From Chiloscyllium plagiosum (taxonomy: Eukaryota), in contig NW_025214746.1 of assembly GCF_004010195.1 (NCBI RefSeq), forward strand, positions 1 to 50,000: a stretch of 50,000 nucleotides of DNA, given 5' to 3'. Under the pieces are notes generated by a model, which had not been told where the DNA came from, did no database searches, and saw nothing but the letters and a program-made list of their open reading frames with translations. The position numbers and the translations under genes are program-made. How positions within the stretch are numbered: the first letter of the stretch is position 1; each line of letters begins with the position of its first letter. Shown one piece after another: positions 15,353-42,156 of this stretch.

Positions 15353-15423
15353 GTTGAATGTAATTTTTGCGAAATTTGATGAGGTTCAGAAATCTGGAAA
15401 TATGATTTTGTCTTCAGCAGCTG
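15353..15423 (+). CDS. CLASP1: CLASP1 internal coding exon (end of TOG1 region), 71 nt, phase 2 to phase 1
   Basis: Acceptor ttttctttatccAG and donor G|GTGAGT. Translates to (R)LNVIFAKFDEVQKSGNMILSSAA(D), matching recalled human CLASP1 RLNVIFTKFDEVQKSGNMIQSAND. Joins in frame to 42010. Confidence 0.93.
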
Positions 15424-15934
15424 GTGAGTTAACTGGACTGTTATTTTAATGCTGTCTTTGAAATTGGGACATTAAAGACCATGATGAGCTTCCAGATGAC
15501 ACTTGCAATCATCTGATGTTGTATTACTGGTGGAAGCCATTCTGAATTCAAACTCGCAGTTTTGTGTTTAATTATTGGTAGAAGCATTTGACAAGTGCCT
15601 ATTTGATTGGATGAGTTGTAGCTGAATCTAATTTTGTATTTTTGGGCAATGTTCTTTTTAAATGGAGAGGCAGTGTGGAAAGAAAAAGTATCCCTAACAA
15701 AAATATTTACTACTTTTTGATTTAAAAAGGCTGCTTTTTCTTTCTGAATGATTATTGGATAATGTCATGTTGTTAGACTTTTGAATAGTATCTCTGTCGT
15801 GTTTTATTTTCCTACACTAACATTGTTCATGCACTACATGTATTAAATGCTTGAAGTCATGTCCTTCTGTTGTCCTATCACAGCAATTTTTTTTTTCTTA
15901 TTTGCTCTGTTATGTACAAGACTATGATATCTAA

Positions 15935-16098
15935 ATTAGATTAAATGCCCTACAGTATGGTAACAGGCCCTTTGGCCAAACAAGTCCACAATGACCCTCC
16001 GAAGAGTAACCTACCCAGACCCATTCCCCTACCCAACATTTACATCTGACTAATGCATCTAACATTATGGGCAATTTAGCATGGCCAGTTCATCTGAC
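15935..16098 (-). mobile_element. HE1-like SINE 3' part
   Basis: ATTAGATTA...ACAGGCCCTTTGGCCAAACAAGTCCACA...GGCAATTTAGCATGGCCA. Confidence 0.85.
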
Positions 16099-16477
16099 CA
16101 AGTGTCTGTGTAGGTCCTTCAGGTAATAACCCATCAGTGTGGCTTGCTGTCAAATATCTTTGTTAAAGGTGCGTCGCAGAAACATTAGGACATTCGCAAC
16201 TTTAAAACATTGCCAAATAAATGCAAGTTATTGTTGTAAAGATTAACATTCCCCACTATCCTTATAGTGACTGTGTGTAAAGATTTCTTTTAAGTGTATG
16301 GCCATTTACATTATGTTTTTGCTGACTGTGCAGTCGCATCAGGATACTGTGCGACGAGGCAGCTCAGAGAAAACATTGAGTCCTGATACCATCAGGACAT
16401 ACAAGGATGGCCTACAAATGTCGTTTCACAGGCACCACCAAATGCTGAAGAAATTCTAAAAATGTCTCCTCTTTTAG

Positions 16478-16827
16478 GGGCAGCACGGTGGCTTAGTGGT
16501 TAGCACTACTGCCTCTCAGTACCAGGGACCTGGGTTTGATTCCCTACTCGGGCGACACTCTGTGTGGAGTTTACACATTCTCGCCATGTCTGTGTGGGTT
16601 TCCTCCCACACCCTCCGGGTGCTCCTATTTCCTCCCACAATCCAAAGATGTGCAGGTCAGGTGAACTGGTGGAGGCTAGTACAATTACAACATTTAAAAG
16701 ACATTTGGATGGGTATATGAATAGAAAAGGTTTAGAAGAATAGGGACTAGATTTATATAGGACATCTGGTCTGAATGGACAAGTTGGACTGAAGGGTTAG
16801 TTTCTATGGTGTATATCTCTGACTCTA
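16478..16827 (+). mobile_element. HE1 SINE 5' half joined directly to a CR1 3' end
   Basis: SINE runs to GGTGAACTGG (16669), then CR1 TGGAGGCTAGTACAATTACAACATTTAAAAGACATTTGGATG continues to a GACTCTA tail. Confidence 0.8.
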
Positions 16828-16969
16828 CAAAAGCAAGAATGGATAGAAATTGGGAACAAAGTTGATTTAAGCTTTCTGGTTTGATGCAAGAGTAGACAGT
16901 ACCTTTAGATACAGTGATCAATTTACCAAAAAGAATTGAGGGTGGAAACAGTAGAACTGAAACAAAGCA

Positions 16970-17170
16970 AAGAGAAAGTAAGGGCTGCAAGTGTTGGAGA
17001 GTCATTGGAAAGTGTGGCACTAGAAAAAGCTCCAAGGAGCAGGAGAGTCGGCATTTCAGGCGTAAGCCTTTCATCATATTTCTAATGAAAGGTCAACTCT
17101 CCTGCTCCTAGGATGCTGTCTGACCTGCTGTGCTTTTTCCAGTGCCACACTTTTCGACCATGTATCTCCT
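16970..17170. mobile_element. Decayed palindromic Penelope-type element (family B)
   Basis: Inverted arms AAAGTGTGGCACTAGAAAAAGC and GCTTTTTCCAGTGCCACACTTT around hammerhead remnants. Confidence 0.7.
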
Positions 17171-17464
17171 GAAAAGGCAGGCTCATTCAGGAAACATACG
17201 AGTTCCTGAAGCAATGCCCCTTGTTTTGGAGTCACGCACATGTGTGGAGTAATTGGGAATGATGTTTAAGGTAAAACCAGGTTTAGCCAGGCAGAAAAAG
17301 AGTGCTGATAGTTGGGGTCTCATTGCATCTCAGTGTGAGAATGATGAGGTAAACTGGTGACTGATGACACTGTAAACAAACTGGATGTCCGTAGTGTAGA
17401 GGAGACTTTTAGGAAGTGGAAACCACTAACTTAAATTTAATTAATTGATGTAGATTAGAAGATG

Positions 17465-18636
17465 TTGCAGATGACACAAAGGTTGGAGGTGTCGTCGATA
17501 GTTTCGAGGGCTATTGCAGGTTGCAGCACGACATAGACAGGATGCAGAGCTGGGTTGAGAAATGGCAGATGGAGTTCAACCTGGATAAATGCGAAGTGAT
17601 GCATTTGGAAGGTCGAACGCGCATGCTGAATGTAGGATTAAAGACAGGATTCTAGGTAGTGTCGAGGAACAGAGGGACCGGGGTGTGCAGGTACATAGAT
17701 CCCTCAAAATTGCCACCCAAGTGGATAGGGTTGTTAAGAAAGCATATGGTGTTTTGGCTTTCATTAACAGGGGGATTGAGTTTAAGAGGCGCGAGGTTTT
17801 GCTACAGCTCTATAAGTCCCTGGTGAGACCACACTTGGAATATTGTGTCCATTTCTGGTCGCCCTACTATAGGAAAGATACAGAGGCTTTGGAGAGGATG
17901 CAAAGAAGGTTTACCAGAATGCTGCCTGGATTGGGGGACTTGCCTTATGAAGAAAGTTTGAAAAAGCTCGGACTTTTCTCTCTGGAGAGAAGGAGGAAGA
18001 GAGGTGACCTGATCGAGGTATACAAGATAATGACAGGAATAGATAGCCAGAGACTCTTCCCCAGGGCAGAGTTGACGGGTACGAGGGGGTCATAGTTTGA
18101 AAATATTAGGGGTAAGGTATAGATTAGATTAGATTACTTACAGTGTGGAAACAGGCCCTTCGGCCCAACAAGTCCACACCGACTCTCCGAAGAGCAACCC
18201 ACCCAGACCCATTCCCCTACATTTACCCCTTCACCTAACACTACGGGCACTTTAGCATGGCCAATTCACCTAAACTGCACATTTTTGGACTGTGGGAGGA
18301 AACCCACGCAGACACGGGGAGAATGTGCAAATTCAACACAGTCAGTCGCTGGGTCTCTGGCGCTGTGAGGCAGCAGTGCTAACCACTGTGCCACCATGCC
18401 GCCGTATAGAGGAGATGTCAGAGGTAGGCTCTTTACGCAGAGTTGTGATAATGCGTTGCCAGCGGTGATGGTGGAAGCAGAGTCATTAGGGACATTTAAG
18501 TGACTGCTGGGCAGGCACCTGGAGCGCAGTAAGTTGAGGGGTGTGTAGGTTAAATTATTATATTTTACATTAGGATTAAACCTCGGCACAACATTGTGGG
18601 CCAAGGGGCCTGTTCTGTGCTGTACTTTTCTATGTT
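17465..18636 (+). mobile_element. Young CR1-clade LINE, 5' truncated, with a SINE inside
   Basis: ADDTKVGG motif, ORF 17589-18095 (RT C-terminus), and CTATGTT tail. Confidence 0.95.
18124..18403 (-). mobile_element. Young HE1-like SINE
   Basis: 7-bp TSD GTATAGA at 18117-18123 and 18404-18410; TAATC tail. Confidence 0.92.
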
Positions 18637-19330: not shown

Positions 19331-20940
19331 GTAAGCTTGTTTCATACAGCTGATTGCTACTATTTGTATCCTGAGAACTAGCATACACTGCCAAGATGTC
19401 GTTAACCAAATATACCTAAAGCATCCAAGATCTGGCCTGAATATCAAATGCAAATAATTTTTGTTTTGGATATGCTGAGTTCATTCAAGTTAAACCTCAC
19501 TAAAGGCATTAAAATAATCCAAGTCAAGTGATGGATAACTTTGTTTAAACTTTTGTCTTATTTGGATATTGGAGACACTGCAACTGCTGAGGAAAAAGTG
19601 ATAGAAGAAAAACACGAGTGATATGTAGGGTAAAAGTCACCTTGTTGGCAGATTACTAAATTGCAGGGTGATAGATTTCATTTATGCAAACACGTTATAA
19701 ATCTGAACACAGAAATTTTATATTTGGACTAAGGAAGTTTTAATGATGACAACTATCAGATGCAAAATCAGATATTTTAGTAGGAAATTGAATTGACATT
19801 GAGGTTTTGTTTAACATATAAGTTATACTTGACTTCTGTAAGAAGTGAAACTAACATATAGAAACTGTGTATAGTACAAATTAAATCTATCCGTATAAAT
19901 AAATTTGGGTAGCTATAAAGTGTTCTAATGTTGACTGTAACTTAAGGGCATTTAAATGATCCAGCCTGATGTTATAAAAGTGCTGTAAACACTGCAAGGT
20001 TTCAGAGAATGAAGAATTTCATCTTGATGCGGTTCACCTTTTGAGATGTGATGTCTTGTATTGGAAATTTTTTTTGTGACTACGGGGATCAGAATTTTGA
20101 AGAGATGTTTTCATGGATGAAAATCCTCATTGTTTGGTTACTGTCATATTGGGCATTAAAATGTTTTTGAGCTAAGATGTAAACTGGAGTCTATGCACTT
20201 CTTCATTATAAAACAAATGACAATTGCTGGCTTCATGCAATAAGGAACTTGAGTTGAGAGTTTTGAATTTAAATTTGAGGTTGCTGAGTGGAATTATATT
20301 TTTGAATCATTGCTTTCGGTTAATTATGCAGGTGTTTTTTTTTAAACACCCAAAAGAGATATTCTATTTCGAGTGCAAGTGTTTGCAATTGGAGATCATC
20401 TAGTGTCTCCATTCAGATCTTTCCTCTCTGGTGATATGTAATTTATGTTCAATCTTTTGTGCTGGTTTACAGTGACTCATGGCACCATGCTAAGAAACAA
20501 GCATACCTGTCAATCAGTGTAAATGAATTTAGAAATTTCATTCTGATGCACTAGAAGAGACTCTAGATATTTGAGTTTGTATAAAAAATAATACGGTTTA
20601 TTTCAGTGCTCCCAATCTTCATGTTGGGGAAAAGGATTGCTTTTTGAAAAGATGTTGTACAGCGTACATTTTCTGGGCCAACCCAGTTCTCCACATTTTG
20701 TTCTATTATAAACCATCAAATGAAGGAAATATTGAGAGCTGGGTTAATTTGAAGGTTGGGCTTTCACTATAAATGTTGTCCCTTGGTTGAAAAGAAACTG
20801 GTGTCTTTAGCATTGGTGTTGATTGATGGTTGGTGTCTGTTTGACTGGGGAGGGTTTGATTGAATTTTACCCTATTGACACTAAATCCTCTGACTTCAGA
20901 GCTAACACTGAGCACTGTATTGTGTAGACTGGTGTTAGAT

Positions 20941-20956
20941 ATGACTACTGGTGAAG
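20941..20956 (+). CDS. CLASP1: Candidate coding part of an alternative first exon (CLASP gamma-type short isoform, MTTGE-D)
   Basis: gatATG ACT ACT GGT GAA G|GTAAGA: strong donor, phase 1, purine at -3. Splicing to 42010 gives MTTGEDKNFDEDDS, parallel to CLASP2-gamma MAMGDDKSFDDEES. Confidence 0.65.
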
Positions 20957-20993
20957 GTAAGATTCAAACTGAAATTTGTCAGTTTAAAATCAG

Positions 20994-21024
20994 ATGCATA
21001 ATTTGTCAGCGATAATTGATATGC
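20994..21024 (+). CDS. Candidate alternative first exon or alternative donor (MHNLSAIIDM-H)
   Basis: ATG CAT AAT TTG TCA GCG ATA ATT GAT ATG C|GTAAGT: consensus intronic donor bases, phase 1, in frame with exon 42010. Confidence 0.3.
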
Positions 21025-22329
21025 GTAAGTTTAGTATTTGAAAGAATCAACAGACATGTCAAGTAAAACGAAGAAAAAAGATGCTGAGTACAGTTTGTAA
21101 CAAAAAAATTTCAATTTTTGACAATATACATATTGGTTAACACGTGATAGTTGGCCTTTACAGTTAACAGAAGAAACAATTTATCCTTTTCTGTTGACTG
21201 AATTCATGAGTTATTTTTCTACATAAGAAATGTACATCATTTTGTAGGGAGCTGGTTTTTAAAACAAGGTGACTCAACAATTCATGACTAACACATAACT
21301 GCTTCAAAATACAAGTATCAGATGTTGGTTGTTTATTTACTTTGGTGTATTTATTGTTATAAATACTGGCTAATTTTGTTCTGACTGCTTTTAATAGCTT
21401 GTAGGATTCTTGGGGTGCAGTTTTAACATAATTCTGCTAAATTTCCATTTAATTCCTTTTGACTTCAGAAATTTTCCATTGTAATGTATTGTTTGTCTCC
21501 AGCCAGCAATAAATACTTGTCGGTTATAAACTTACTTGATTATCCCTTTAAATTATTTCTAAAACAAACTTCGAGATGTTAATACATGGGGACAATTTAA
21601 TAAGTTATTGATAGTCTGTTGAATTTTGTAGAGACCATCTCCTTAATAATTAGAATGATTAAGCTCCTTTCTACGTTTTTGTACATTTAGAACATATCTT
21701 AGTTGAGGAATCATTCATTAGTGAGTTTGTAGAATTTGTTTACTTTGCTGGACATTAAGTACATTGGATCTGCTATCTTGTTGGACTTGACTTGATAGAT
21801 TACTTTGTAACTTGTTGAGATTGTACACATAGTGAGAATAACGCTATTAACTTGATGGCTACTTTGCGTCAGCTGTTTCCAGCATCTTGTGTGTGAATAT
21901 TAAGTGCAATTTGTGCATTGTTACCAGGCATTGGTCTGATTTTTAAAAAAGTTATTTACAAAATTTATTTTTGTTGTTCTTCGAATGCTGACTTCATGTA
22001 AAGGAATTTACAGTTAATTTAAGTTTTTGGTTTTTTTGAATGGTTATTTCTTTCACCTCTATGTCGGGAATAAGATCCTGTGGAGAAGATAAAATGAGGA
22101 TTAAAATTAAGACCTTTTCCTGCTCTCTTGGCTATCACTTGCAGTCACGTCCTCATCTGGGAGGGTTGGGGTCAGCAGTTTTAATGTCCTTATTGAGCTG
22201 ATATTTAATACGACAGCAGCAGGCTCAGATTTGACTCCTGCTGTCTGTGAAATTGCCATCTGTTTTATTTATTGATGTCAGAAAGCAACACCATTCAACA
22301 TTATGGTTGCCTGCTTTTCTAAAATATAC

Positions 22330-24599: not shown

Positions 24600-25295
24600 T
24601 GATCGAAGAAAATGTGGTGGGATGAGGAATTATTAAGTTTGCAGATGACATGAACATTGGCTGGGTGGTTGATAGTGAGGAAGAAGTTCATGGTTTAAGG
24701 AGAGTGTAGGTTGGCCAAATGGGCATATCAGTGGTAGATGGAATTTTATATTGGAAAATGTTGGAAAATTAAACAAGGTAAGGGAATACTCAATGACTTG
24801 ACTAACTCTGCTTTCTCCTGACAGATGCTGCCAGATCTGCGTTTCTTCAGTAATTTCTGTTTTTGTCTTTACCAGAATGTTGCCTGGCATGGAGCAGATT
24901 ACTTATGAAGAGAGGCCAGATAGGCTCAGGTTGTTTTCTGGGGTGGGTGGGGTGGTAAGAGAGGCTAATGTTGTTTAAAATTACGAGGGGTGTGCACAGA
25001 GTGGAGGGAAAGCTGCTGTTCCCCTTAGTTGAAGAGTCAATAACAAGGGTCCATAATTTTAAGGTGAAAGGCAGGATTTTTGGAGGGGACTTGAGTAAAA
25101 CATTTTTTCATCCAGAGGGTGGTGAAAGTCTACAATTCACAGCCTCTGAGCATAGTTGAGGCCTAGATATCAGAACCTTTTAAAAAGCGCTTGGGATAAG
25201 CACATGTCCCACAGCCTTGAATGTTATGACACAAGTGCTGAAAACTGGGACTGGTGTAACTGAGAATAGCATTTGTCTCTGCACTGTATGATTCT
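24600..25295 (+). mobile_element. Old CR1 fragment with a Penelope-type (family D) tail at about 24800-24872
   Basis: AAGTTTGCAGATGACA (KFADD), ACCAGAATGTTGCCTGG, and insert ACAGATGCTGCCAGATCTGC. Confidence 0.75.
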
Positions 25296-26855
25296 GCAAG
25301 TGACATAGAATAAGCCATTGGTGACCAAGTGACTCAATCTACTTCATGTATTGGCTGAAGAAAATTCCCCCATTACATAGCTGAAGTCAGGCAAGGCAAG
25401 AAAGAGCAGAAGTGACTAACCAAAATAACAACTTGTGTCTTCTGACTTGTCAGCAAAGATTATACAATTGGTAAATTATTTCACTGTCCATGTGTTCTTG
25501 AACTTGAATCATTTTTATTTTAGTTCATGCTGTGAGTGCTTTCAGCAACAATTTATATTTCCTTTTATTTGATTTGTTTCCATATATAAAAATTGTAAGT
25601 CGCATATTTGTGAAATACTTTGGGTACTCTAAATAATGGCACAAAGGGAAAAAAGTGCTCTTTTTCAGAAAAGCTACGACCTCACAAGGACATGATTTCT
25701 GCAACAATGTTTCCCATTTTGGTTCAACAATGGCAGGGTGTTAACCTATATATAAATCAGGCATCTCCTCAGTTTGATTCTGCCTAAGTTGCAGCCAGCT
25801 CAGTGACAATGTTGCCAAATATGGAACTAGTATTTCCAGGGCTGGGTCAGTAAAAGTTTTATCCAGTAAAAGTCAGCCATGGTTTCCATTTTTAATCATT
25901 AATGGCATCTGGAAGACGCATGTTTTGTGATGAAAATTCAGTTCAGGTTCAACTAAAATGCCTTCAGTGTGTATATATAAATATTGGCATTAATGAAAGT
26001 TGGTTAATACCATGATGCTGGCTCATGTATACGGCACTAGCTGCACAGTCAAGAAAGTCAATATTAAAAACAATAAAATTGCTTCCAACTTGATGATTCC
26101 TTAACAATGTATAATGCAGCAGGAAGTAGGCAAGTGCCCAGTTTATGCCAAATATGTCTCAAAACCGCAACACACCATAGTTGGAAATGTAATAGAGTGG
26201 ATTCCATGAAATCATTTCATACAAGATACTGTGATGTTTCCATTTGGGGGAAAAAAAAACACTTGTTTCATGTGAAATCTTGAATCATTAAATTGTCTGA
26301 TCCATGATCAAAATAATGGTACCTATCTTGTAATAATGAACTTTAAATTCATATTTATTTTAAATCCTAGACTACGTGATGATTCTTTAAATTGCTTCTT
26401 GGGATTTTAAATACAAAGGGTGCTTAAGATGCAATAAAATGCTGACCATTATTGTGTTAATGAAATGGCATTTATTAAAGACTTCCAACACTTAAGTTAA
26501 ATAATATGTGACGCACTGTCTTAAAACATACCTGTCGCTCAAACTGAATTTGGCACTTAGTTCTAATATTGCAGTCCTCACTGTTTTATCTGACTGAATG
26601 AGTTCTGGTTTGGTGTCTCATTGTTTTGTTTTGCAAAGTACCTGTGAAACAGGGGCAGTTTCATGACATGCTGTATAATATGTAAGTTGTATCAATGGAG
26701 TCATAGAGCCTTACAGCATGGAAACAGGCCTTTTGGTACAAATTGTTCAAGCCGACTAGATATCCTAAATAAATCTAGTCCTGTTTGCCAACTTTTGGCC
26801 CATGTCCTTTTAAACCTTTTCTATTCATATACCCATCCAGTTGCCCTTTAAATGT

Positions 26856-27220
26856 CAAAAATCACACAACACCAGGTTATAGTCCAACAGGTTTATTTCC
26901 AAGTGCTCCTTTTGGAGCACTGCTCCAGGTAGCTGTGGAATAGGATTATAGCACACAGAATTTTCAGCAGAAGATCACAGTGTCATACTACTGAAATGAT
27001 ATATTGAACAAATCTAGATTGCTGTCAAGTCTTTCACCTTTTAGAATGGGCTGCAGGTTCATTAATATGTAAATCTCAGAACTTCTTTCAAGTCACATTC
27101 TCAATATAACATTAGATTTTATAAAAGAAAGGTGACATCTCAGCAATTGGACTATAACTTGGTGGTTGTGTGATCTTTAACTTGGTCCACCCAAGTCCAA
27201 CACTGACACCTCTACATCAT
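26856..27220. mobile_element. Penelope-type element (family A) with an inverted terminal segment; hammerhead core deleted
   Basis: ATCACACAACACCAGGTTATAGTCCAA on the left and its near reverse complement at about 27147-27175. TSD core TTTAAATGT at 26847-26855 and 27225-27233. Confidence 0.8.
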
Positions 27221-27615
27221 GGCTTTTAAATGTTGTAATTGTACCAGCCTCCTCCACTACTTCTGGCAGCTCATTCTGCACACACTCCACTGTCTGCGTG
27301 AAAAAGTTGCCCTTTAGGTCACTTTGAAATCTTTCCCTTCTCACCTTAAACATTGCTCTCTAGTTTTCCAATCCCACAACCTGAGGAAAAGACCTTGTCT
27401 ATTTATCCTATCTCAACCTTGAAGGTCACCCCTCAGCCTCGGATATTCCAGGGAAAATAGCGCCAGCCAATTCAGCCACTCCCGATAGCAAAAACCCTCC
27501 AAACTTGGCAACATCCTCGTAACTACTTTCTGAACCCTTTTAAGTTTCACAACATCCCACCTATAGCAGGGAGACCAGACCTGCACGCAGTATTCCAAAA
27601 GTGGTCAAACTAATG

Positions 27616-27935
27616 GGCGGCACGGTGGCACAGTGGTTAGCACTGCTGCCTCACAGTGCCAGAGACCCGGGTTCAATTCCCGCCTTAGGCGACTGACTGA
27701 CTGTGTGGAGTTTGCACGTTCTTCCCGTGTCTGCGTGGGTTTCTTCCGGGTGCTCCGGTTTCCTCCCACAGTCCAAAGATGTGTAGGTCAGGTGAATTGG
27801 CCATGCTAAATTGCCCGTAGTGTTAGGTAAGGGGTAAATGTAGGGGTGGGTTGCGCTTCGGCGGGGCGGTGTGGACTTGTTGGGCCGAAGGGCCTGTTTC
27901 CACACTGTAAGTAATCTAATCTAATCTAATCTAAT
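27616..27935 (+). mobile_element. Young full-length HE1-like (V-SINE) SINE
   Basis: Pol III A box TGGCACAGTGG, B box GGTTCAATTCC, CR1-shared end GGGCCGAAGGGCCTGTTTCC, (TAATC)n tail, TSD CTAATG at 27610-27615 and 27936-27941. Confidence 0.95.
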
Positions 27936-28434
27936 CTAATGTACTGTACAGCCTCAACATGGCCTCCCAACTCCTACGCTCGATGCTCTGACCAACAAAG
28001 GCAAGCGTACCAAACTTCGCCTTCACTATCCTGTCCACTTGCGACTCCACTTTCAAGGAACTGTGAACTTGCATTCCATGGTCTCCTTGTTCAGCAACGT
28101 TCCCTTGGGCCTTACCATTAAGTACATAAGTTCTGCCCTGATTTGCCTTTCCAAAATGCCGCACCTCACATTTATCAAAACTAAATTCCATATGCTACTT
28201 CTCGGCCCATTAGCCCATCTGATCAAGATTATCTTGTTCTCTGAGGTAACCTTCGCTGTCCACTACACCATCAATTTTAGTGTCATCTGCAAACTTACTA
28301 ACTGTACCTCCTGTTATCACATCCAGATCATTTGTACAAATGATGGAAAGCATTTCCTATATATTTTAGAAGAACTAGGAGTGGCTATAGACAATATAGT
28401 CATTCAGTCCTGCTCTACCACTTGATATGATCAT

Positions 28435-29186
28435 AGAACATAGAACAATACAGCGCAGAACAGGCCCTTCGGCCCTCAATATTGCGCCGACCTGTGAACT
28501 ATTCTCAGCTTGTCCTCCTACACTATCCCATTATCATCCATGTGCTTATCCAAGGATTGTTTAAATCTCCCTAATGTGGCTGAGTTGACTACATTGGCAG
28601 GTAGGGCATTCCACACCCTTATCACTCTCTGAGTAAAGAACCTATCTCTGACATCTGTCTTAAATCTATCACCCCCCAATTTGTAGTTATGCCTCCTCGT
28701 ACAAGCTAATGTCATCATCCTGGGAAAAAGATTTTCACTGTCTACCCTATCTAATCCTCTGATCGTCTTGTATGTCTCTATCAAAACCCCTCTTAGCCGC
28801 CTCCTTTCCAATGAGAACAGACCCAAGGTCTCAGCTGTTCCTCAAAGCCTTCCCTCCAGACCAGGCAGCATCGTGGTAAATCTCCTCTGCACCTTTTCCA
28901 ATGCATCCACATCCTTCCTGAAATATGGCGACCAGAACTGTACATAATATTCCAAGTGCGGCTGCACTAGTGTTTTGTATAGTTGCAGCATGATATTGCG
29001 GCTCCGGAACTCAATCCCTCTATCAATGAAACTTAACACACCGTATGCTGCCTTAACAGCACTATCGACGTGGGTGGCAACTTTCAGGGATCTATGTACA
29101 TGGACGCCAAGATCCCTCTGCACATTCACACTGCCAAGAATCCTTCCATTGACCCAGAACCTATGCCTTCCTGTTGTTCTTCCCAA
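28435..29186 (-). mobile_element. Young CR1 3' fragment
   Basis: ORFs 28518-28826 and 28842-29186; CTATGTT tail; TSD ATCAT at 28430-28434 and 29187-29191. Confidence 0.93.
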
Positions 29187-29219
29187 ATCATGGCTGATTT
29201 CAACTCCGTCTTACACCCC

Positions 29220-29687
29220 TGTGAGGTTCCCTTCTTGAGATTCTTACACGCATGATGCAACTACAATCTGCCAACTTCTGTGAACAGCCATGATTTATTT
29301 CAGCAAGTACAAACTTTTGGAGGATTGCTTCGTGCTCTTTGCGATACTTGTGGAGCGTGTCAAGCGAGGCTGTCCGAACAAGGGAACCGTCCTCCCCTTA
29401 TATGAGGTTTTACATCACAGTCAGTCATGCACACAAGACACAACCCTTTGCTACCCAAAAAGTGAGAGATTAGGTTATTCTGTAAAACAGCGTGTGATTA
29501 GATTATTCCTGAAAACAACGTGTGACTAGGTTATTCCTGAAAACAGCGTGTGATGAGGTTATTCCATAAAATAGCGAGTGTTCGGGTTATTCCTTAACCT
29601 GCAGCCTTTACAGAGTATCATTAGATTGTCACATCCTGCCTGTAAGACAGAACTTATCAGAACAAATTAACCCTTTAACATCTCACA
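29220..29687 (-). mobile_element. Solo LTR, 468 bp (ERV or Gypsy type)
   Basis: Inverted termini TGTGAG and CTCACA; 4-bp TSD CCCC. On the minus strand, a U3 tandem array is followed by TATAA (29398-29402) and AATAAA (29294-29299). Confidence 0.85.
29468..29593. repeat. 28-bp tandem repeat, about 4.5 copies, in LTR U3
   Basis: Unit is approximately GATTAGGTTATTCCTGAAAACAGCGTGT, with starts at 29468, 29496, 29524, 29552 and 29580. Confidence 0.9.
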
Positions 29688-30029
29688 CCCCCCACCCCCT
29701 TTCCTGCCTGCTCCCTATAACCCATTAACTCAAAACATGTTAAAAATTTGTTTATCTGCTCAAATTTATTTATTGTCCACTGGATTCTGAGGTACTGAAC
29801 TCTACAGATTCAAGGCCCTTTGAGAGAAGTAATGCTTCCTGTTCTCTGTTTTAAATCTGCCACGCTTTAATCAAAACTTGTGTAATCTGTGGTTCTCAAA
29901 TTGGCTCTTTGGCTACTTTGTCAATCCCCTTTTTAATCTTAGATCTCCTCTAGTCCTTCTGAACTCTAGTGAGTAAAGACTGAAACTGCTTAATTTCTCC
30001 TCATAAAACAGGCCTTCCTTCTCTGGAAT

Positions 30030-30340
30030 TAGATTACTTAGTGTGGAAACAGACCATTCGGGCCCAACAAGTCCACACCGACCCTCCGAAGAGCAACCCA
30101 CCCAAACCCATTCTCCTACATTTACCCCTTCACCTAACACTATGGGCAATTTTGCATGTCCAATTCACCTACCCTGCACATTTTTGGACTGTGGGAGGAA
30201 ACCGGAGCACCCGGAGGAAACCCACGCAAAAACTGGGAGAATGTGCGAACTCCACACAGACAGTTGCCTGAGTCAGGAATTGAAGCCAGGTCTCTGGCGT
30301 TGTGAGGCAGCAGTGCTAACCACTGTGCCACCGTGCCACC
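30030..30340 (-). mobile_element. Young HE1-like SINE
   Basis: Complete from head to tail; imperfect TSD CTCTGGAAT / CTCAGAAT. Confidence 0.92.
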
Positions 30341-31123
30341 TCTCAGAATGTTTCCAATGCAATTCCAATCTTCCTCAAGTAAGGGGACCAAGACCAAACC
30401 ATTTCTTTCACAATAAATGCCAAAATTCCATTTGCCCTCGTTATTACCTGCGATACCTGTGTGCTTGCTTTCTGTGACTCGTGCACAAGGAGATACACAT
30501 CCCTCTAGACGGAAGCATTTTGAAGTTTCCTTTCTGTTGTTCTGACCAATTGAAAACTTAAACACTTATCCACATTTAATTCCATCTGCCACATTTTGGC
30601 TTATTCACCAAATCTACCCATATCCATTTGTAAATTTCTTATTTCTTCATTGCAGCCTATTTTCCTGCCTATTTTAGTGTCATCTTCCAATTTACCTATA
30701 TTATATTCTATCCCTGCATACAAGTCATGAGCACAGGTTGTAAATAGTTGGTGCCTGAGGACTGAACCCTGTGGTAGCCCACTACTTGCAGTTTGCCAAT
30801 CAGAAAATGACCCGTGTATCCGGACTGTCGTCTTTCTTTTGGTTAGCCAGTCCTCTGTCCAGACTAATGTATTTGCCCAACCCCACGTGCTCTCGCCTTG
30901 TATATTAATGGTTTGCGTGCCATGTTATCAAATGCCTCTGGAAGTTCAGCTATACTGCATCTGTCAGACCCCCATTATCAACTTTTCTTGTTGCATTCTT
31001 TGAAAAACTCTGATAACTTTAGTCAAACATAATTTACCCATCTGTTTTAAAAAAAATTCTAACTCTGGATTGTGTACTAACTTTCCAAGTATCCTGTTAC
31101 TAATTTCTAAAGCATGGATTCTA

Positions 31124-32397
31124 ATGGCTTTGTGCATGGGAAATAATTTTTCACAAACTTGATTGAGGTTTTTGAAGAAGTACCAAAGAGGATTGATGAG
31201 GGCAGAGCAGTAAACGTGATCTATATGGACTTCAGTAAGGTGTTCGACAAGATTCACCATGGGAGACTGGTGAGCAAGGTTAGATCTCATGGAATACAGG
31301 GACAACTAGCCAACTGGATATAGAACTGGCTCAAAGGTAGAAGACAGAGGGTGGTGGTGGAGGGTTGTTTTTCAGACTGGAGGCCTGGAACTAGTGGAGT
31401 GCCACAGGGATTGGTGCTGGATCCACTACGTTTCATCATTTATATAAATGATTTTGATGTGAGCTTAAGTTTGTAAGTTTGCAGGTGACGCCAAAATTGG
31501 AGGTGTAGTGGACAGCAAAGAAGCTTACCTGAGATTACAACGGGATCTTGATCAGATGAGCCAATGGGCTGAGGAGTGGCAGATGGAGTTTAATTTAGAT
31601 AAATGTGAGGTGCTGCATTTTGGGAAAGCAAATCTTAGCAGGACTTATACACTTAATAGTAAGGTTCTGGAAATGTTGCTGAACAAAGAGACTTTGGAGT
31701 GCAGGTTCACAGTTCCTTGAAAGTGGAGTCGCAGGTAGTCGGGATTGTGAAGAAGGCGTTTGGTATGCTTTCCTTTATTGGTCAGAGTATTGAGTACAGG
31801 GGTTGGGAGGTCATGTTGCGGCTGTATAGGACATTGATTAGGCCGCTGTTGGAATATTGCATGCAATTCTAGTCTCCTTCCTAACTGAAGCATGTTGTGA
31901 AACTTGAAAGGATTCAGAAAAGATTTATAAGGATGTTGCCAGGGTTGGAGGATTTGAGCTATAGGGAGAGGCTGAATAGGCTGGGCCTGTTTTCCTTGGA
32001 GGCTGAGGGGTGACTTTATAAAGGATTATAAAATCATGAGGGGCATGGATAGGATAAATAGACAAAGTCTTTTTCCTGGGATGGGGGAGTCCAAAACTAG
32101 AGGGCATAGGTTTAGGGTAAGAGGGGAAAGATATAAAAGAGACCTAAGGGGCAATACTTTCATGCAGAAGGTGGTATGTGTGTGGAATGAGCTGCCAGAG
32201 GAAGTGGTGGAGGCCAGTACAATTGCAACATTGAAAAGGCATCTGGATGGGTATATGAACAGGAAGGGTTTGGAGGGATAGAGACAAAGTGATGGCAGTT
32301 GGGACGAGATTGGGTTGGAATATCTGGCCAGCATGGACGAGTTGGACCGAAGGGTCTGTTTCTGTGCTGTACCTCTTTATGACTATGACTCCATGAC
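31124..32397 (+). mobile_element. CR1-clade LINE, RT domain to 3' end
   Basis: IYMDFSKVFDK, SGVPQG, WQMEFNLDKCEVLHFG and WNELP motifs; CTATGACT-type tail. Confidence 0.95.
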
Positions 32398-32689
32398 AGA
32401 TGTTAAAAAAACTTGTCTGTGGTTTCCTACTTTTTGTTTCCTTCCCTTTTTGAATAAGGGCATTACATTAGCATTTTTTTTCCAATCCAATAGAACATTT
32501 CTGTAGAGAATTTACCAATGCATCCGCTATCTCTGCTGCCACTTCCTGTAAGACCCTCTGATATAAATCATGGGGACTGGTTTGCCTTTAATCCCAATCG
32601 TTTGATCAGTACTTTTTCTTAAGTGGAAATAATAGTTTTATGTTCCTCCATTTCTGTAATTTCTACGTGACATTACCTGTTATATCAAG

Positions 32690-32978
32690 TTGCGTTGGCT
32701 CAGTAGTTAGTACTGCTGCTTCGAGCACCAGGGACCTGTATTCGATTCCAGCTGTGGGTAACTGTCTATGTGGAGCTTGCACATTCTACCGTGTCTGTGG
32801 GGGTTTCCTCCCATCGTCCAAAGATATGTGGGTTAGATAGATTTTTCCATGCCAATTGCCCATAGTGTCCAGGGATGTGCAGGCAAGGTAGGTTAGCCAT
32901 AGGAAAAGAAGGGTGACAGGAATAGGATAAGGTAGTTGGTCTGCGTGGGATTTCTTTGTAGGGTCGATGTTCTATGAT
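32690..32978 (+). mobile_element. Old HE1-like SINE
   Basis: TGGCTCAGTAGTTAG, TTCGATTCC, and TGTGGAGCTTGCACATTCT core. Confidence 0.8.
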
Positions 32979-34032
32979 ATATTTACATGGTGGTGGATCT
33001 GGAAACTGAGGCAAATATTGTTCTAATGCCTGTGCAAATCTTTGTTCTGCACTGTCAACTCTGCAATCTCGTGTTCTGAGGGGCCAATGCTCATTTTAGC
33101 TATAATCTTTTTGCTGTTGATGATTTTATATTTTGCACTTGTCATCATTTATAATTAACCTTTAGTTTGTTTATTACTGTTTTAGTAAGCCTTTTTTGGT
33201 CTTTACGTTTCCCACTTACTTTTGCAATGTGATATGCCTTAGTTTTGTCCTGGTGTTATCTTTAGCTTTCTTGCTTTACCATTTTTCCTCCCTCTCTTAG
33301 AATCGTTCTTCCTTTCTGGAATATATTTATTTGGGAAGGATTGAATATTTTCTTAAATATATAGCACTGTTCAACTGTCATATCTCTCAATTTTTCTGCC
33401 CAGTCCATTAAGGCTAAATCTGTCTTGGTGCTTATCTAATTATCTCTGTTTAACACCAGAACTCTCGTGTTGGCTCCAGTTTCTCATTTTGAAACTGAAG
33501 TTGAAATTTCAGCATGGCATGATCAGTCTTTCCTAAAGTATCCTTTACGCAAGATAATCAACTAATCTTACCTTATTACACAATAGTAAATCCAAAATAG
33601 CCTTCTCCCTCGTTGCTTCTTGGAGCAATATGTTGGGGAACCAACCTCTAATACTCTCCGACTTCTCACTTGAGGTTGCTCTTGCCCGTTTGATTAATCC
33701 AGTCTCTGTATATTTAAATAACCCATGATTGTTATCATACCTTTCTTACAATCTACAATGTTTCGAGGTTTATTGCCTTGTGGAACTGCTGTCAGGGGAT
33801 CTATGGATTACTTCCATCAAGCATTTGTTTTCCCTAGCAGTTTGTTCTTTCCACTGATTCTGCATCTTGATCTCCAATGTAACACTGATCCCTTCCTTTA
33901 GTAACAAAGTTGCAGCACCTCCTTTTCCTTTCTGTCTTATCTGTCCGAAACAGAGTACTAGTGGGCATTCAGCTCGCACTTCTGAATCCCTGTAACAATG
34001 TCTCAGTAACTGCTACTAAATCATACCTATTT

Positions 34033-34193
34033 GGAGTGTAGAGATATATAGCACAGGAATAGACCCTTTGGTCCAACTCGTCCATGCCTACCAGATATCC
34101 TAACTAAATTGAGCCCCATTTCCAGCATTTGGCCCATATCCCTCTCAACCCTTCCTATTCATATACCCATCCAGACTCCTTTTAAATGTTGTC
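34033..34193 (-). mobile_element. Short CR1 3' end
   Basis: Closely similar to 6420-6560. Confidence 0.85.
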
Positions 34194-34317
34194 GTATGTT
34201 TACTATTTCTGTCCTTGTTTCTCTGAGAAACTTCTCTGCAGTTTTTAACCTCCTCCAGCAACCCCCCTCCGCTCACAATGTGCTAATCTTTTATCCTTCA
34301 CTGATAAATATAAATGC

Positions 34318-34440
34318 TTCCTGAAGAAGTCACGCTGGACTTGAAACATTAACTCTGTTTCCATTTCAATGGATGCTGCCAGATCTGCCAACATTGTGTG
34401 TTTATATCAGATTTCCAGCAAACACAGTATTTTGCTCTTG
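34318..34440 (+). mobile_element. Penelope-type tail (family D) with a degenerate hammerhead at 34321-34354
   Basis: CTGAAGA AGTC ACGCTG GACT T GAAA CATT AACT, followed by GATGCTGCCAGATCTGC. Confidence 0.7.
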
Positions 34441-34852
34441 ACAAACCAGATAGTTCATTAAAGGATAAAAAGGTCAATGCATCACGAATAAAAAGCTGAC
34501 AAAAAGGTCAAGAACAAGCAAAACTGAAAGAACACAAAATTCGCAGCCTTGGGCGACTGTGTTCATAAAGAAAGAAAGAGTCAATGTTTGTTTCTATTTG
34601 CATTCTAAAAATTTGCACTTTATTCTGAATGTTATGTAAGTTTGTCCTACTATCAATTTTTCCTGCTTGCTTAGTTCCTTAGTACAAAGTGACATTCATA
34701 TGGCCTGTCATTTCCTTTCATTTTCTAGTGACAACCAACCTCATCACTAGCCTGTACTGCTTATAGTTTTGATTTCTTTAAAAAAAAGATATGCTAATTT
34801 AGAGAATGTTAACGAGATGAGTATCGGGAATAGTGGATTATTTTATGAGGAA

Positions 34853-35971
34853 AGAACATAGAATATAGAACAGTATGGCACAGTACAGGCCCTTCGGCCC
34901 TCGATGTCGTGCCAGTCTTTTATCTTACTCTAAGATCAGACTAACCTACATATTCTTCATTTTACTGTCATCTATGTGCCTATCCAAGAGTCGTTTAAAT
35001 GTCCCTGATGTATCTGACTCTATTACCACCATTCAACGCACCCACCACTGTCTGTGTAAAGACCTACCTCTGACATTTCCCCAAATCTGTCCTCCAATCA
35101 CCTTAAAATTATGTGTCTTTGTGATTATTCACTCTATCTATGCCTTTCATCATCTTGTAAATCTCTGTCAAGTCACCTCTCACCCTTCTTCGCTGCAATG
35201 AGAAGAGCCCTAGCTCCCTCAACCTTTCTTCATAAGATATGCCCTCCAGTCCAGGCAGCATCCTGATAAATCTCCTTTGTACCTTTTCTAAAGCTTCCAC
35301 ATCCTTCCCATAATGAGGTGACCAGAACTGAACACAATATTCCAAATGTGGTCTAACCAGGGCTGTATAGAGCTGCAGCATAACCTTGCGGTTCTTAAAC
35401 TCAATCCCCCTGCTAATGAAAGCCAACACACCATGTGCCTTCTTAACAACCCTCTCAACTTGGGTGGCACCTTTGAGGGATCTGTGGATGTGGATTCCAA
35501 GATCCCTCTGTTCCTCCACACTGACAATACTGCCTTTAACCGTGTAATCTACATTCAAATCTGACCTTCCAAAATAAATCACTTTACACTTTTTCAGGTT
35601 GAACTCTAACTGCTACTTCTCAGCCCAGCTCTGCATCTGTCAATGTCTTGTTGCAACGTACAACATCCCTCCACACTATCCACAACTCCTCCAACCTTCG
35701 TGCCATCAGCAAACTTACTAACCCACCCTTCCACTTCCTCATCCAAGTCATTTATAAAAATCACAAAGAGCAGCGGTGCCAGAATAGATCCCTGCGGAAC
35801 ACTGCTCATCACTGAGCTCCAGGTTGAATACTTTCCATCAGCTACCAGCCTCTGTCTTTTATGGGCCACTCAATTCTGTACACAGACAGCCAAATTTTCC
35901 TGTAGCCCATGCCTCCTTGCTTTCTGAATGAGCCTACCATGGGAACCTTATCAAATGGCTTGCTAAAATCC
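34853..35971 (-). mobile_element. Young CR1 LINE, RT to 3' end
   Basis: ORFs 35606-35869 (SVPQGSILAPLLFVIFINDLD..SKFADGTK) and 35109-35582. Confidence 0.95.
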
Positions 35972-37478
35972 TTGAAGGGAATTTAAAGCTCAAAAAGAAT
36001 TTTGCATTGACAGCATGTGGAATTTAGAGCAAATGCAGATCAGAAAAGACAAAGTTTGTGCGTAACTTGGTGCTGTATTGAATATGCAAAGCAGTTTTGA
36101 GAGAGTTGAAGTTTATGGATGGTGGGAGTGTGTTGAATTGGTCGGGTCTGGATATGGCTTTGGATAACGGCCTCAGCAACAAGTATGCTGGAGTGAGGCC
36201 GAGGTGGCTGTCGCCGGTTTTTGCACTAGAGAGAATATGAAATCTGATGAATGACTTGGGCTTGAATAAGAAATGAATTGCAAACAAAAATGTCTTGGTT
36301 AGCAAACAATGTTTGACAGATATTTATAAATTTATGCATCTGGAAGGAAATGTCTGTCTAAAACATTTTGGCAGTGCTTATTTGGCAGTCAAGTGTCTTC
36401 CCGTGTAAATCATTATTGTAAGATACCCACCAGCTTGTGTAGCAATGTTATGCAAAAAATATTTGAAGTTGCACGAAGGTTTACTGCAATAATTATAATT
36501 TTCTCAGAATGGCATTCTAGTATTCCTCAAACTAATTGAACTTTAATTGTCGTGCATGCTAAATATGAGACCACTCTAGGTTTAAGTGTGTTTAGACAAA
36601 GTTTGCCAATTTATTAAATTATCACAACAAGTACAATAGAAATGGCACTTAATCAAGTAGTGGACATTGCCACTCCAAAATGGAACACGAATCCTCAGTT
36701 GGCTGGGGTGCTGTTTCCTCCTCCTTTTCTGCACACCTGCAACTACCAAAATATTGCCCTTTATTAACTCCTTCCCAACCACAATAGATAGCATGATTAG
36801 AAATTTCTTTGAATGCTGATTTAATTCAGACATTGCATGAATAGATTCATAATTGACTGGGTGATGCCTACACAGGCACGTATAATCCATAATCAGTCTT
36901 GGTTTGAGTATATGTTCAATTCCTATTTCGTTTCTTTAAAGTGATGGTTATTTGAGTGTAATTACTTCCAAATGTTCCCTGAATCACTCTTTTCACAGGT
37001 TGATCATGTTATGAAATCAATCCTTTACTAAGACCAGATGCTGTAGGCGCTGAAGTAGGTCACTCAGCCTGATGAATCTGCTCTGTCATCATAAATGTTT
37101 GCCTTCCCACTATGTTTATGTCATCTCCAACCGTTGGTTATGGTACATGCACTTTCCTCATCCAAGCTATTAATATATATTGTGAATAACTGTGGCCCCA
37201 GCACTGATTCTTGTGGTACTCCATTTTTGAAAATGGCCCCCACATCCCAAACTCTGTCTTTTTATTAGTTAGCCAATCCTCTATCCATCCTAATGTCCTC
37301 CAACATCATGCGTTCAACTAGCCTAACATGCGGCATGTTAGAGCTTGTTTCTCTTAAGTTTAACCCTCAGATTCATGAGATGGTACCAGCAAAGCAATTA
37401 GTGTGTCTGTTAGTACATACAATGTTATCTTCTAGGGATTAACTATCATTCCAATGATCAACTCAGTCTATCAGTATC

Positions 37479-37652
37479 AAAGTGTGACACTGGAAGAACA
37501 CAGCAAATCAGGCAGCATCCGAAGAGCAGGCGAATCGACTTTTCAGGCATAAGCCTCTAATCGGGATGTTGCCTGACCTACTGTGCTTTTCCAGCGCCAC
37601 TCTTTTCGACTTTGATCTCCAGCATCTGCAGTCCTCACTTTCTCCTAAGCCA
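37479..37652. mobile_element. Palindromic Penelope-type element (family B)
   Basis: 9-bp TSD ATCAGTATC at 37470-37478 and 37653-37661; inverted arms; decayed hammerhead. Confidence 0.82.
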
Positions 37653-37919
37653 ATCAGTATCCTTTATTTAGAAAATCCATATATGATTCTACAATAATTG
37701 TTGATATTAAAGCAAATTCAAACTCAAAATAACCATACAAATTAATGCACATTGTCTCATGCATGCTTTTAAAATATAAAACTGAACTGTTTTTGAGCAT
37801 ATCTTTCTGAAACTTATTAATCTAAGTTTATATAATTGTGTCTGAAACAACAAAGCCCTAAACCTTCTATCTGATTTGGGCCAAATACCTTCTTCCTTAC
37901 AGAGAATGTTTCAACAACT

Positions 37920-38410
37920 TTCAGAATACTGTATTTAATTCTGGTCCACCTGCTGTAGGAACAATGTTGTTAAACTGAAAAGGTTGCAAAAAAGATTTAC
38001 ATGGATGTTGCTAGGGTTAGAGGGTATGACCTTTCGGGAGGAGGCTGAATAGGCCGGGGCTATTTTCCCTAGAGCATCAGAGGCTGAGGGGTGACCTTCT
38101 AGAAGTTTATAAAATTACGAGGGGCATGGAATAGGGTGAATGGCCGAGGTCTTTTTCTCAGGGTAAGGGAGTCCAAAGCTAAAGGATGTTGGTTTAAGGT
38201 GAGAGGGGAAAGATTTAAAAGGGACACAAGTGCAACGTTTTCATGCAGAGCGTGTGTATGTGGATTGAGCTGCCAGAGGAAGTGGTGGAGGCTGATACAA
38301 TTACAACATTTAAAAGGCATCTGGATGAGTAAGTGAATAGGCAGGATTTAGAGGGATATGGGCCAAATGCTGGCAAATGGGATTAGATTAATTTAGGATA
38401 TCTGGTTGGT
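37920..38410 (+). mobile_element. CR1 3' fragment
   Basis: Same subfamily as 31850-32330 (GAGGCTGAGGGGTGACC, GAGCTGCCAGAGGAAGTGGTGGAGGC). Confidence 0.9.
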
Positions 38411-41400: not shown

Positions 41401-42009
41401 ATTACTTCCCGTTTTTGTTTGATAGTGCCTTTGTCATTAAAGACTTTGAAACAGAGTTACAATATCTTTCCACCATTAGGGTCATCTTGAATATTCCGTT
41501 TAGACTCTGACACATACACTCCAACATATCACGAGTATTTGTTTTAATGCTCAGTGGACAATGTGTGCTTAGGCTCCTAGCACGTGGGAGCATGATTGAT
41601 CATTGTCTGGATTGATTGCAAATAGAATTTGTTGAAGGAGAGGAGGTGATTGCGATTGCTAAAGGGCAGGATGATGAGAAGACTAATCTGCAAAAAAATT
41701 TGTGCTTGTAAGAGATAGTTGTACATTTTCGCATAGGAGTGAGTGAACTAAAATGCACTAAATGTAATGTAAAGAGAGTAGAACATATAATGGACAAAAG
41801 ATCAGAAATTTGCAGTCTTTTCAGAGGTGTTTCTGATGTCATTTTGAAAAGAAATGGGGGTCACCAGATAATAGAGCAGTGATGTGTACTGTTGAAAGTG
41901 GCACCTCTGATTGGCAGCTAAGGGTAGAGAATGGCTCTATTTATATTGAAGCATACTTTGGAGTGTTTGTTGAAGACATTTTCCTCATTTTTTTTATTCT
42001 TTAATCTAG

Positions 42010-42156
42010 ATAAGAATTTTGATGAAGATGATTCGGTGGATGGAAATAGGCCATCTTCTGCTAGCTCCACGTCTTCAAAAGCTCCCAGTTCACGGCGTAT
42101 GGTTGGTACCAGTCGTAGACCAGGATCATCTGCAGTTGGCTTGAGGACTGGTACAG
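42010..42156 (+). CDS. CLASP1: CLASP1 internal coding exon (linker after TOG1), 147 nt, phase 1 to phase 1
   Basis: Acceptor ttttattctttaatctAG and donor CAG|GTAACA. Translates to (D)KNFDEDDSVDGNRPSSASSTSSKAPSSRRMVGTSRRPGSSAVGLRTGT, matching recalled CLASP1 DKNFDDEDSVDGNRPSSASSTSSKAPPSSRR better than CLASP2 DKSFDDEESVDGNRPSSAASAFK. Confidence 0.95.

Follow-up and report, generated by a model that had tools for sequence, protein, structure and literature searches.

Two candidate internal first exons, gamma-like and beta-like, in the CLASP1 gene of a carpet shark

The closest described counterparts of the exons considered here belong to CLASP2, the paralogue of CLASP1. Mouse Q8BRT1-6 is taken here to be CLASP2-gamma and rat Q99JD4 is presumably CLASP2-beta; the membrane binding of the latter is said, in work of Akhmanova from 2001, to occur by cysteine palmitoylation. 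PMC6373834 mentions membrane binding of CLASP2-beta and an enrichment of the short CLASP2 forms in neurons, and section 10 of PMC6035287 states that in CLASP2 lacking TOG1 the C-terminal domain inhibits TOG2 until CLIP-170 binds. According to the supplement of PMC5114537, mouse Clasp2 Q8BRT1-6 starts with MAMGD in front of DKSF, at whose Asp the long form is joined as well, in agreement with the CLASP2-gamma start MAMGD-D that the initial annotation of the DNA studied here had named. For rat CLASP2 Q99JD4, the supplement of PMC6415872 provides residues 7-21, including K7-R8-I9-C10-D11-Y12-K13-S14.

As regards CLASP1, the available parts of PMC6373834, PMC6281476 and PMC6035287 describe a single isoform and assign the regulated TOG1-less forms to CLASP2. 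N1E-115 cells showed a single CLASP1 band (PMC6373834), and therefore a short protein may be scarce. The preprint 10.1101/2022.04.27.489792 reports that a smaller CLASP1 is present in heart, in wild-type mice as well as in exon-2 knockouts, and that the other organs tested had lost CLASP1. In the literature searched, most subscription papers lying outside its scope, neither a CLASP1 form of beta or gamma type nor the age of the corresponding exons was described, and the available parts of PMC3747297, PMC6641166, PMC5994897, PMC6890249, PMC10443533 and PMC3315288 added nothing on isoforms. Here, we analyzed a window of 50,000 nucleotides from Chiloscyllium plagiosum. We consider it likely that the CLASP1 intron following TOG1 holds two internal first exons in this shark, a gamma-like exon orthologous to the MTTGK exon of mammals and a second, beta-like one, and that the set of alpha, gamma and beta starts most likely arose before the CLASP1/CLASP2 duplication.

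The shark CLASP1 intron and its probable gamma-like exon

The window carries carpet-shark CLASP1: a query comprising positions 42012-42155 matched clasp1a of Chiloscyllium punctatum and Hemiscyllium ocellatum with 100% identity, and in tblastn both coding exons of the window were 100% identical to shark clasp1a. VQKSGNM and DKNF are present in the window as in human CLASP1, whereas mouse Clasp2 has VQNSGGM and DKSF, which assigns the gene to CLASP1 rather than CLASP2. Only two annotated CLASP1 coding exons were located in the window by tblastn, both on the forward strand, as are the candidate exons, the splice donor and the TATAAAT motif described below. The last TOG1 exon (15353..15423, 71 nt), which is part of the full-length alpha form, ends in phase 1 and matches residues 214-238 of Chiloscyllium/Hemiscyllium clasp1a. 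The shared linker exon (42010..42156, 147 nt, phase 1 to phase 1) matches residues 239-287. The intron between them measures 26,586 nt, and many repeat copies, LINE-like or SINE-like and lying in either orientation, fill it at 15900-18550 and 24900-38400; a short tandem array with a 28-nt period is located at 29457-29596.

The initial annotation had drawn attention to an ATG in this intron that is followed, after five codons and a G, by a GTAAGA donor. The sequence bears this out: positions 20941-20956 read ATG ACT ACT GGT GAA G and are followed by GTAAGA at 20957..20962 (AAG-GTAAGA). This stretch, the coding part of the putative gamma-like internal first exon, encodes MTTGE plus a G in phase 1 and is situated 5.5 kb downstream of the TOG1-end exon and 21,053 nt upstream of the linker exon. 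It falls into the gap between the two repeat-filled regions and is itself free of the listed repeat families. The final G and the AT at 42010 make up an Asp codon in frame, the phase being the same as in the TOG1-end exon. The donor is one of three [AC]AG-GTRAG sites in the intron, and of the three open sites of the type ATG+4 codons+G-GT only this one has a GTRAG donor.

Promoter signals at the gamma-like exon are weak. A TATAAAT at 20768..20774, 173 nt before the ATG, was detected by motif scan as a possible, weak core promoter, and it is a lead only, because the window as a whole contains 1.64 motifs of this kind per kb. There is no CpG island at the exon and no exact MEF2 or CArG site near it, leaving a muscle promoter unsupported. 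One upstream ATG was found, at 20826, which is out of frame and whose reading frame stops before 20941.

The exon is missing from the cartilaginous-fish gene models compared. A short CLASP1 start was present in none of the 96 cartilaginous-fish models that carry the linker exon (97 examined, one being partial and lacking it; the count is a lower bound, as some cluster members are not included), as the initial annotation had expected for a 16-nt exon that gene finders would miss. A search of sequencing runs turned up none recorded as an RNA source. In the read data, neither a joint nor a loose end was seen at 20956 in four runs on 20200-21200 (four contig pieces), the 21-kb junction exceeding the span limit of the method. 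Contigs X1 (20818-20997) and X6 (20695-20984) cross the donor unspliced; they provide no promoter evidence, because the runs were chosen for holding the site and their library type is not recorded. Two single-cell runs, sampled at 2 and 6 in 100 and of almost no power, had no reads at 20200-21200. Use of the gamma-like exon in shark is what we infer from its conservation, shark junction reads amounting to none.

Short CLASP1 starts in mammals

A first protein search returned five pig RefSeq models starting with MTAGK and one unnamed protein starting with MTTGK, all at the linker junction. When residues 1-40 of the pig short form were used as query, 6199 matches were obtained, of which 82 of the best 120 start with MT-x-G-K/R (68 MTTGK, 6 MTAGK, 4 MTAGR, 2 MVMTTGK, 1 MTVGK and 1 MTFGK). 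Among these best 120, the carriers are placentals only (primates, rodents, bats, carnivores, ungulates and whales), the order being by likeness to pig and hence uninformative on other vertebrates. The comparison consists of two points, shark and placentals, because no short start from a marsupial, bird, reptile, amphibian or bony fish was obtained. A second TOG1-less class, starting with MIQSAN, accounts for 16 of the best 120 of the 6199 matches and includes the cDNAs FLJ53242 (testis) and FLJ61355. The Met of this start class is kept in the shark exon at 15353-15423.

The human matches comprise RefSeq models, e.g. XP_016859171.1, and the full-length cDNA FLJ55338 (AK297259, BAH12531.1). In the accessible part of PMC2780955 (2009), FLJ55338 is an oligo-capped first-exon variant, which Table 3 groups with the variable first exons whose expression is high in fetal brain, and FLJ55778 (brain) and FLJ53242 (testis) are further CLASP1 entries. 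The supplement of PMC2780955, as available, places its coding sequence from base 41 onwards, i.e. behind a 40-nt leader, with a length of 1246 aa, and classes FLJ55338 as type B and FLJ55778 as type A1. The Pfam hit for TOG1 (PF21041) is present in the full-length shark protein and absent from the human short form. A TOG1-less CLASP1 isoform, as predicted from the shark sequence, does exist in mammals, but it is not new, human and many placental entries being held in databases.

The shark and human starts are identical at four of five residues, and in shark, too, an M-T-x-G start of five codons would be joined to the Asp of the linker exon, as expected of an orthologue of the mammalian MTTGK exon. 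Because the mammalian motif was not known when the shark site was selected, the match is a real test, and the exon passed it. In introns simulated after masking the gamma-like and beta-like sites from training, the motif M-T-x-G-x-G-GTRAG, whose fixed residues were taken from the independent mammalian starts, occurred in 1 of 2000. When the strong donor was not required, the mean was 0.03 per simulated intron. The gamma-like exon is very probably real and conserved from shark to human.

The 50%-cluster protein search gave 11 matches, none with a true short start, and the short-protein search gave 19, mostly genomic read-throughs. In P0314 and P0323 the Asp is preceded by five residues, which were rejected as intron read-through. 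No short-form N-terminus was found in the PDB, no CLASP start peptide in the N-terminal proteomics supplements of PMC9396073, and no N-terminal sequences by atlas searches. The Ensembl-derived primate models P0271, P0284, P0258, P0342, P0344 and P0174 have garbled N-termini at the linker junction, which suggests mis-projection of a tiny first exon.

A beta-like candidate and the age of the internal exons

The same intron contains a second candidate internal first exon at 41671..41707. Here, two successive ATG codons are present, and from 41674 the frame encodes MRRLICKKICA plus T (34 nt, phase 1), followed by a GTAAGA donor at 41708. The exon ends 302 nt upstream of the linker exon, and its T together with the linker AT yields Tyr12. 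The intron has 14 open sites of the type ATG+10 codons+1-GT, and a GTRAG donor is present at this site alone. The beta pattern, which was written after the match had been seen and takes its content from the rat sequence, occurred in 3 of 2000 simulated introns and in none of them with a strong donor. Presumably, residues 1-6 of rat Q99JD4 also match the shark exon. The shark peptide contains two cysteines, at positions 6 and 10. CpG observed/expected rises to ~0.5 at 41001-41750 just upstream of the exon (window mean 0.28; counts are small), possibly reflecting a promoter. A beta-type CLASP1 start was found in none of 344 fetched proteins. A metagenome motif scan yielded a single genomic CLASP1 locus, L001, which comes from another vertebrate and does not reach the position of the gamma-like exon; the 2.4 kb preceding its linker exon contained no beta exon either, and a 9-codon ATG-to-donor stretch in it was discarded because of its unconvincing likeness to a beta exon.

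The initial annotation had likened MTTGE-D to the start of CLASP2-gamma. As judged from the genomic sequence, the shark candidate would resemble the latter as a five-codon, phase-1 first exon that joins the linker exon and removes TOG1, and likewise in its M-x-x-G pattern. An acidic residue 5, in contrast, is not a shared feature: Glu in shark is faced by Lys or Arg in 81 of 81 fetched five-residue CLASP1 starts. Compared with MAMGD, the shark start agrees at two of five residues (M and G) with a BLOSUM score of 12, versus 22 for the mammalian CLASP1 start. The claim that the exon predates the CLASP1/CLASP2 duplication could not stand on these two residues, but a second exon of this intron, the beta-like one, lends it support that is independent, if indirect, and backs a pre-duplication origin better than the five gamma residues do. 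As both CLASP2 short starts have counterparts in CLASP1, descent from a pre-duplication gene is the best explanation. At the sequence level, the agreement of both exons argues for an arrangement of internal promoters that was already in place before CLASP1 and CLASP2 separated; short CLASP forms probably predate the two genes and are not a speciality of CLASP2. Overall, the earlier interpretation is partly supported.

Four other explanations have to be weighed against this. That the gamma-like motif merely arose by chance in a long intron is hardly conceivable: the intron does offer 26 phase-1 combinations of an ATG with a GTRAG donor no more than 30 codons away, but the mammalian match was not used to pick the site, and the full motif is as rare as one in 2000 simulated introns. 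Very improbable, too, is that the segment is an in-frame cassette exon of 57 nt (20900-20956) between TOG1 and the linker exon. An AG at 20898-20899 could serve as acceptor, and the frame is open through the ATG; yet this acceptor has pyrimidines at 13 of 20 positions and differs from the two real acceptors in lacking a distinct tract, none of the 96 long cartilaginous-fish models carries an insert at the junction, the mammalian proteins begin at the corresponding Met, and the human cDNA has its 40-nt leader.

It is also improbable, though less so, that both exons are orthologous relics which are no longer transcribed or spliced in shark. In line with this, junction reads are lacking and the exons are absent from 96 cartilaginous-fish models built with RNA-seq. 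However, the read data, including the two single-cell runs without reads, have almost no power, and ATG, frame and strong donors have stayed intact over a very long separation amid a repeat-filled intron. The most serious rival, which we nevertheless regard as doubtful, is a gamma-like exon shared by sharks and mammals that arose independently of CLASP2-gamma, its five-codon length being a coincidence. Any start exon in this intron must end in phase 1, and the two residues in common with MAMGD and the lower BLOSUM score point in the same direction. Against it, the exons of both paralogues agree in length, in Gly at position 4 and in the final G, and the beta-like exon matches the other CLASP2 short start, that of beta type, at 4/6 comparable positions, so that the internal exons of this intron either predate the split or were exchanged. 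Two internal first exons, most likely of pre-duplication age, are the preferred reading.

Predicted products and comparison with known CLASP forms

According to this preferred reading, two internal promoters would give rise to mRNAs from which all TOG1 exons are missing and which encode 5 or 11 additional residues in front of the linker, the TOG1-end exon, the gamma-like exon and the beta-like exon all being spliced to the linker exon at 42010..42156. A promoter just upstream of 20941 would start the gamma mRNA, whose 16 coding bases would be joined, in phase 1, to the start of the linker exon (42010). The product, CLASP1-gamma, would be a CLASP1 of about 1230 aa (computed on the X7 backbone, as for the beta form) without TOG1 and with TOG2, TOG3 and the C-terminal partner-binding domain. 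The beta-like exon at 41674 would produce a form of about 1236 aa with a basic, two-cysteine N-terminus like that of CLASP2-beta. By analogy with CLASP2, auto-inhibition of the TOG1-less forms may persist until the C-terminal domain is occupied by a partner, and CLIP-170 might gate the CLASP1 short form in the same manner. Enrichment in nervous tissue would also be expected from this analogy; the neuron enrichment of the CLASP2 short forms agrees with the listing of the human CLASP1 cDNA under fetal brain.

On balance, we lean slightly towards a wider scheme in which the ancestral vertebrate CLASP had alpha, gamma and beta promoters. CLASP2 would have kept all three, and CLASP1 would have kept gamma from shark to human and beta in sharks, the latter perhaps having been lost in amniotes. 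CLASP1 would accordingly supply a partner-gated TOG1-less brain form that neither exon-2 knockouts nor N-terminal reagents would reach, and a membrane-targeted form in addition in sharks. What this work adds is the shark orthologue, by which the transcript is recognized as ancient, and the beta-like exon; the mammalian isoform was already in databases. Conservation of a five-codon start between shark and human would identify as functional a transcript known only from databases, and the beta-like exon would place the origin of the entire promoter layout ahead of the CLASP1/CLASP2 duplication. If the start is conserved, exon-2 Clasp1 knockouts may not be nulls.

A heart form that survives disruption of exon 2 is what an internal promoter predicts, and the MTTGK form would provide a named candidate for it. 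As far as described in the accessible part of 10.1101/2022.04.27.489792, the small mouse-heart CLASP1 is shorter than alpha and independent of exon 2. However, mouse is absent among the MTTGK matches listed, and the human evidence points to brain. The heart protein may be the MTTGK form, and it could also be the form starting with MIQSAN.

The nearest relative of the predicted shark gamma-like form is the human CLASP1 short form (FLJ55338, XP_016859171.1; pig XP_020930841.1), which likewise has a five-residue start, joins at the same Asp, lacks TOG1 and comprises about 1230-1250 aa. It differs in having Lys at residue 5, where the shark has Glu, and it is represented by database entries and one table row in the available part of PMC2780955, no functional study having been found, while the shark copy is unannotated. 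CLASP2-gamma (mouse Q8BRT1-6), which is made from an alternative promoter, has in common with the predicted shark form a start of five residues, Gly at position 4, junction at the Asp of DK[NS]F and absence of TOG1, but it is encoded by the paralogous gene, differs at residues 2, 3 and 5 and is well studied as a protein. CLASP2-beta (rat Q99JD4) and the shark beta-like exon agree in eleven codons plus T, in the start position and, within the stretch of rat sequence available, in K7, I9, C10 and Y12 (4/6 comparable positions); they differ in R8 and D11 of CLASP2 versus K8 and A11 of shark CLASP1, the beta type being known only from CLASP2. The CLASP1 exons would be an addition to a known kind of regulation rather than a new mechanism.
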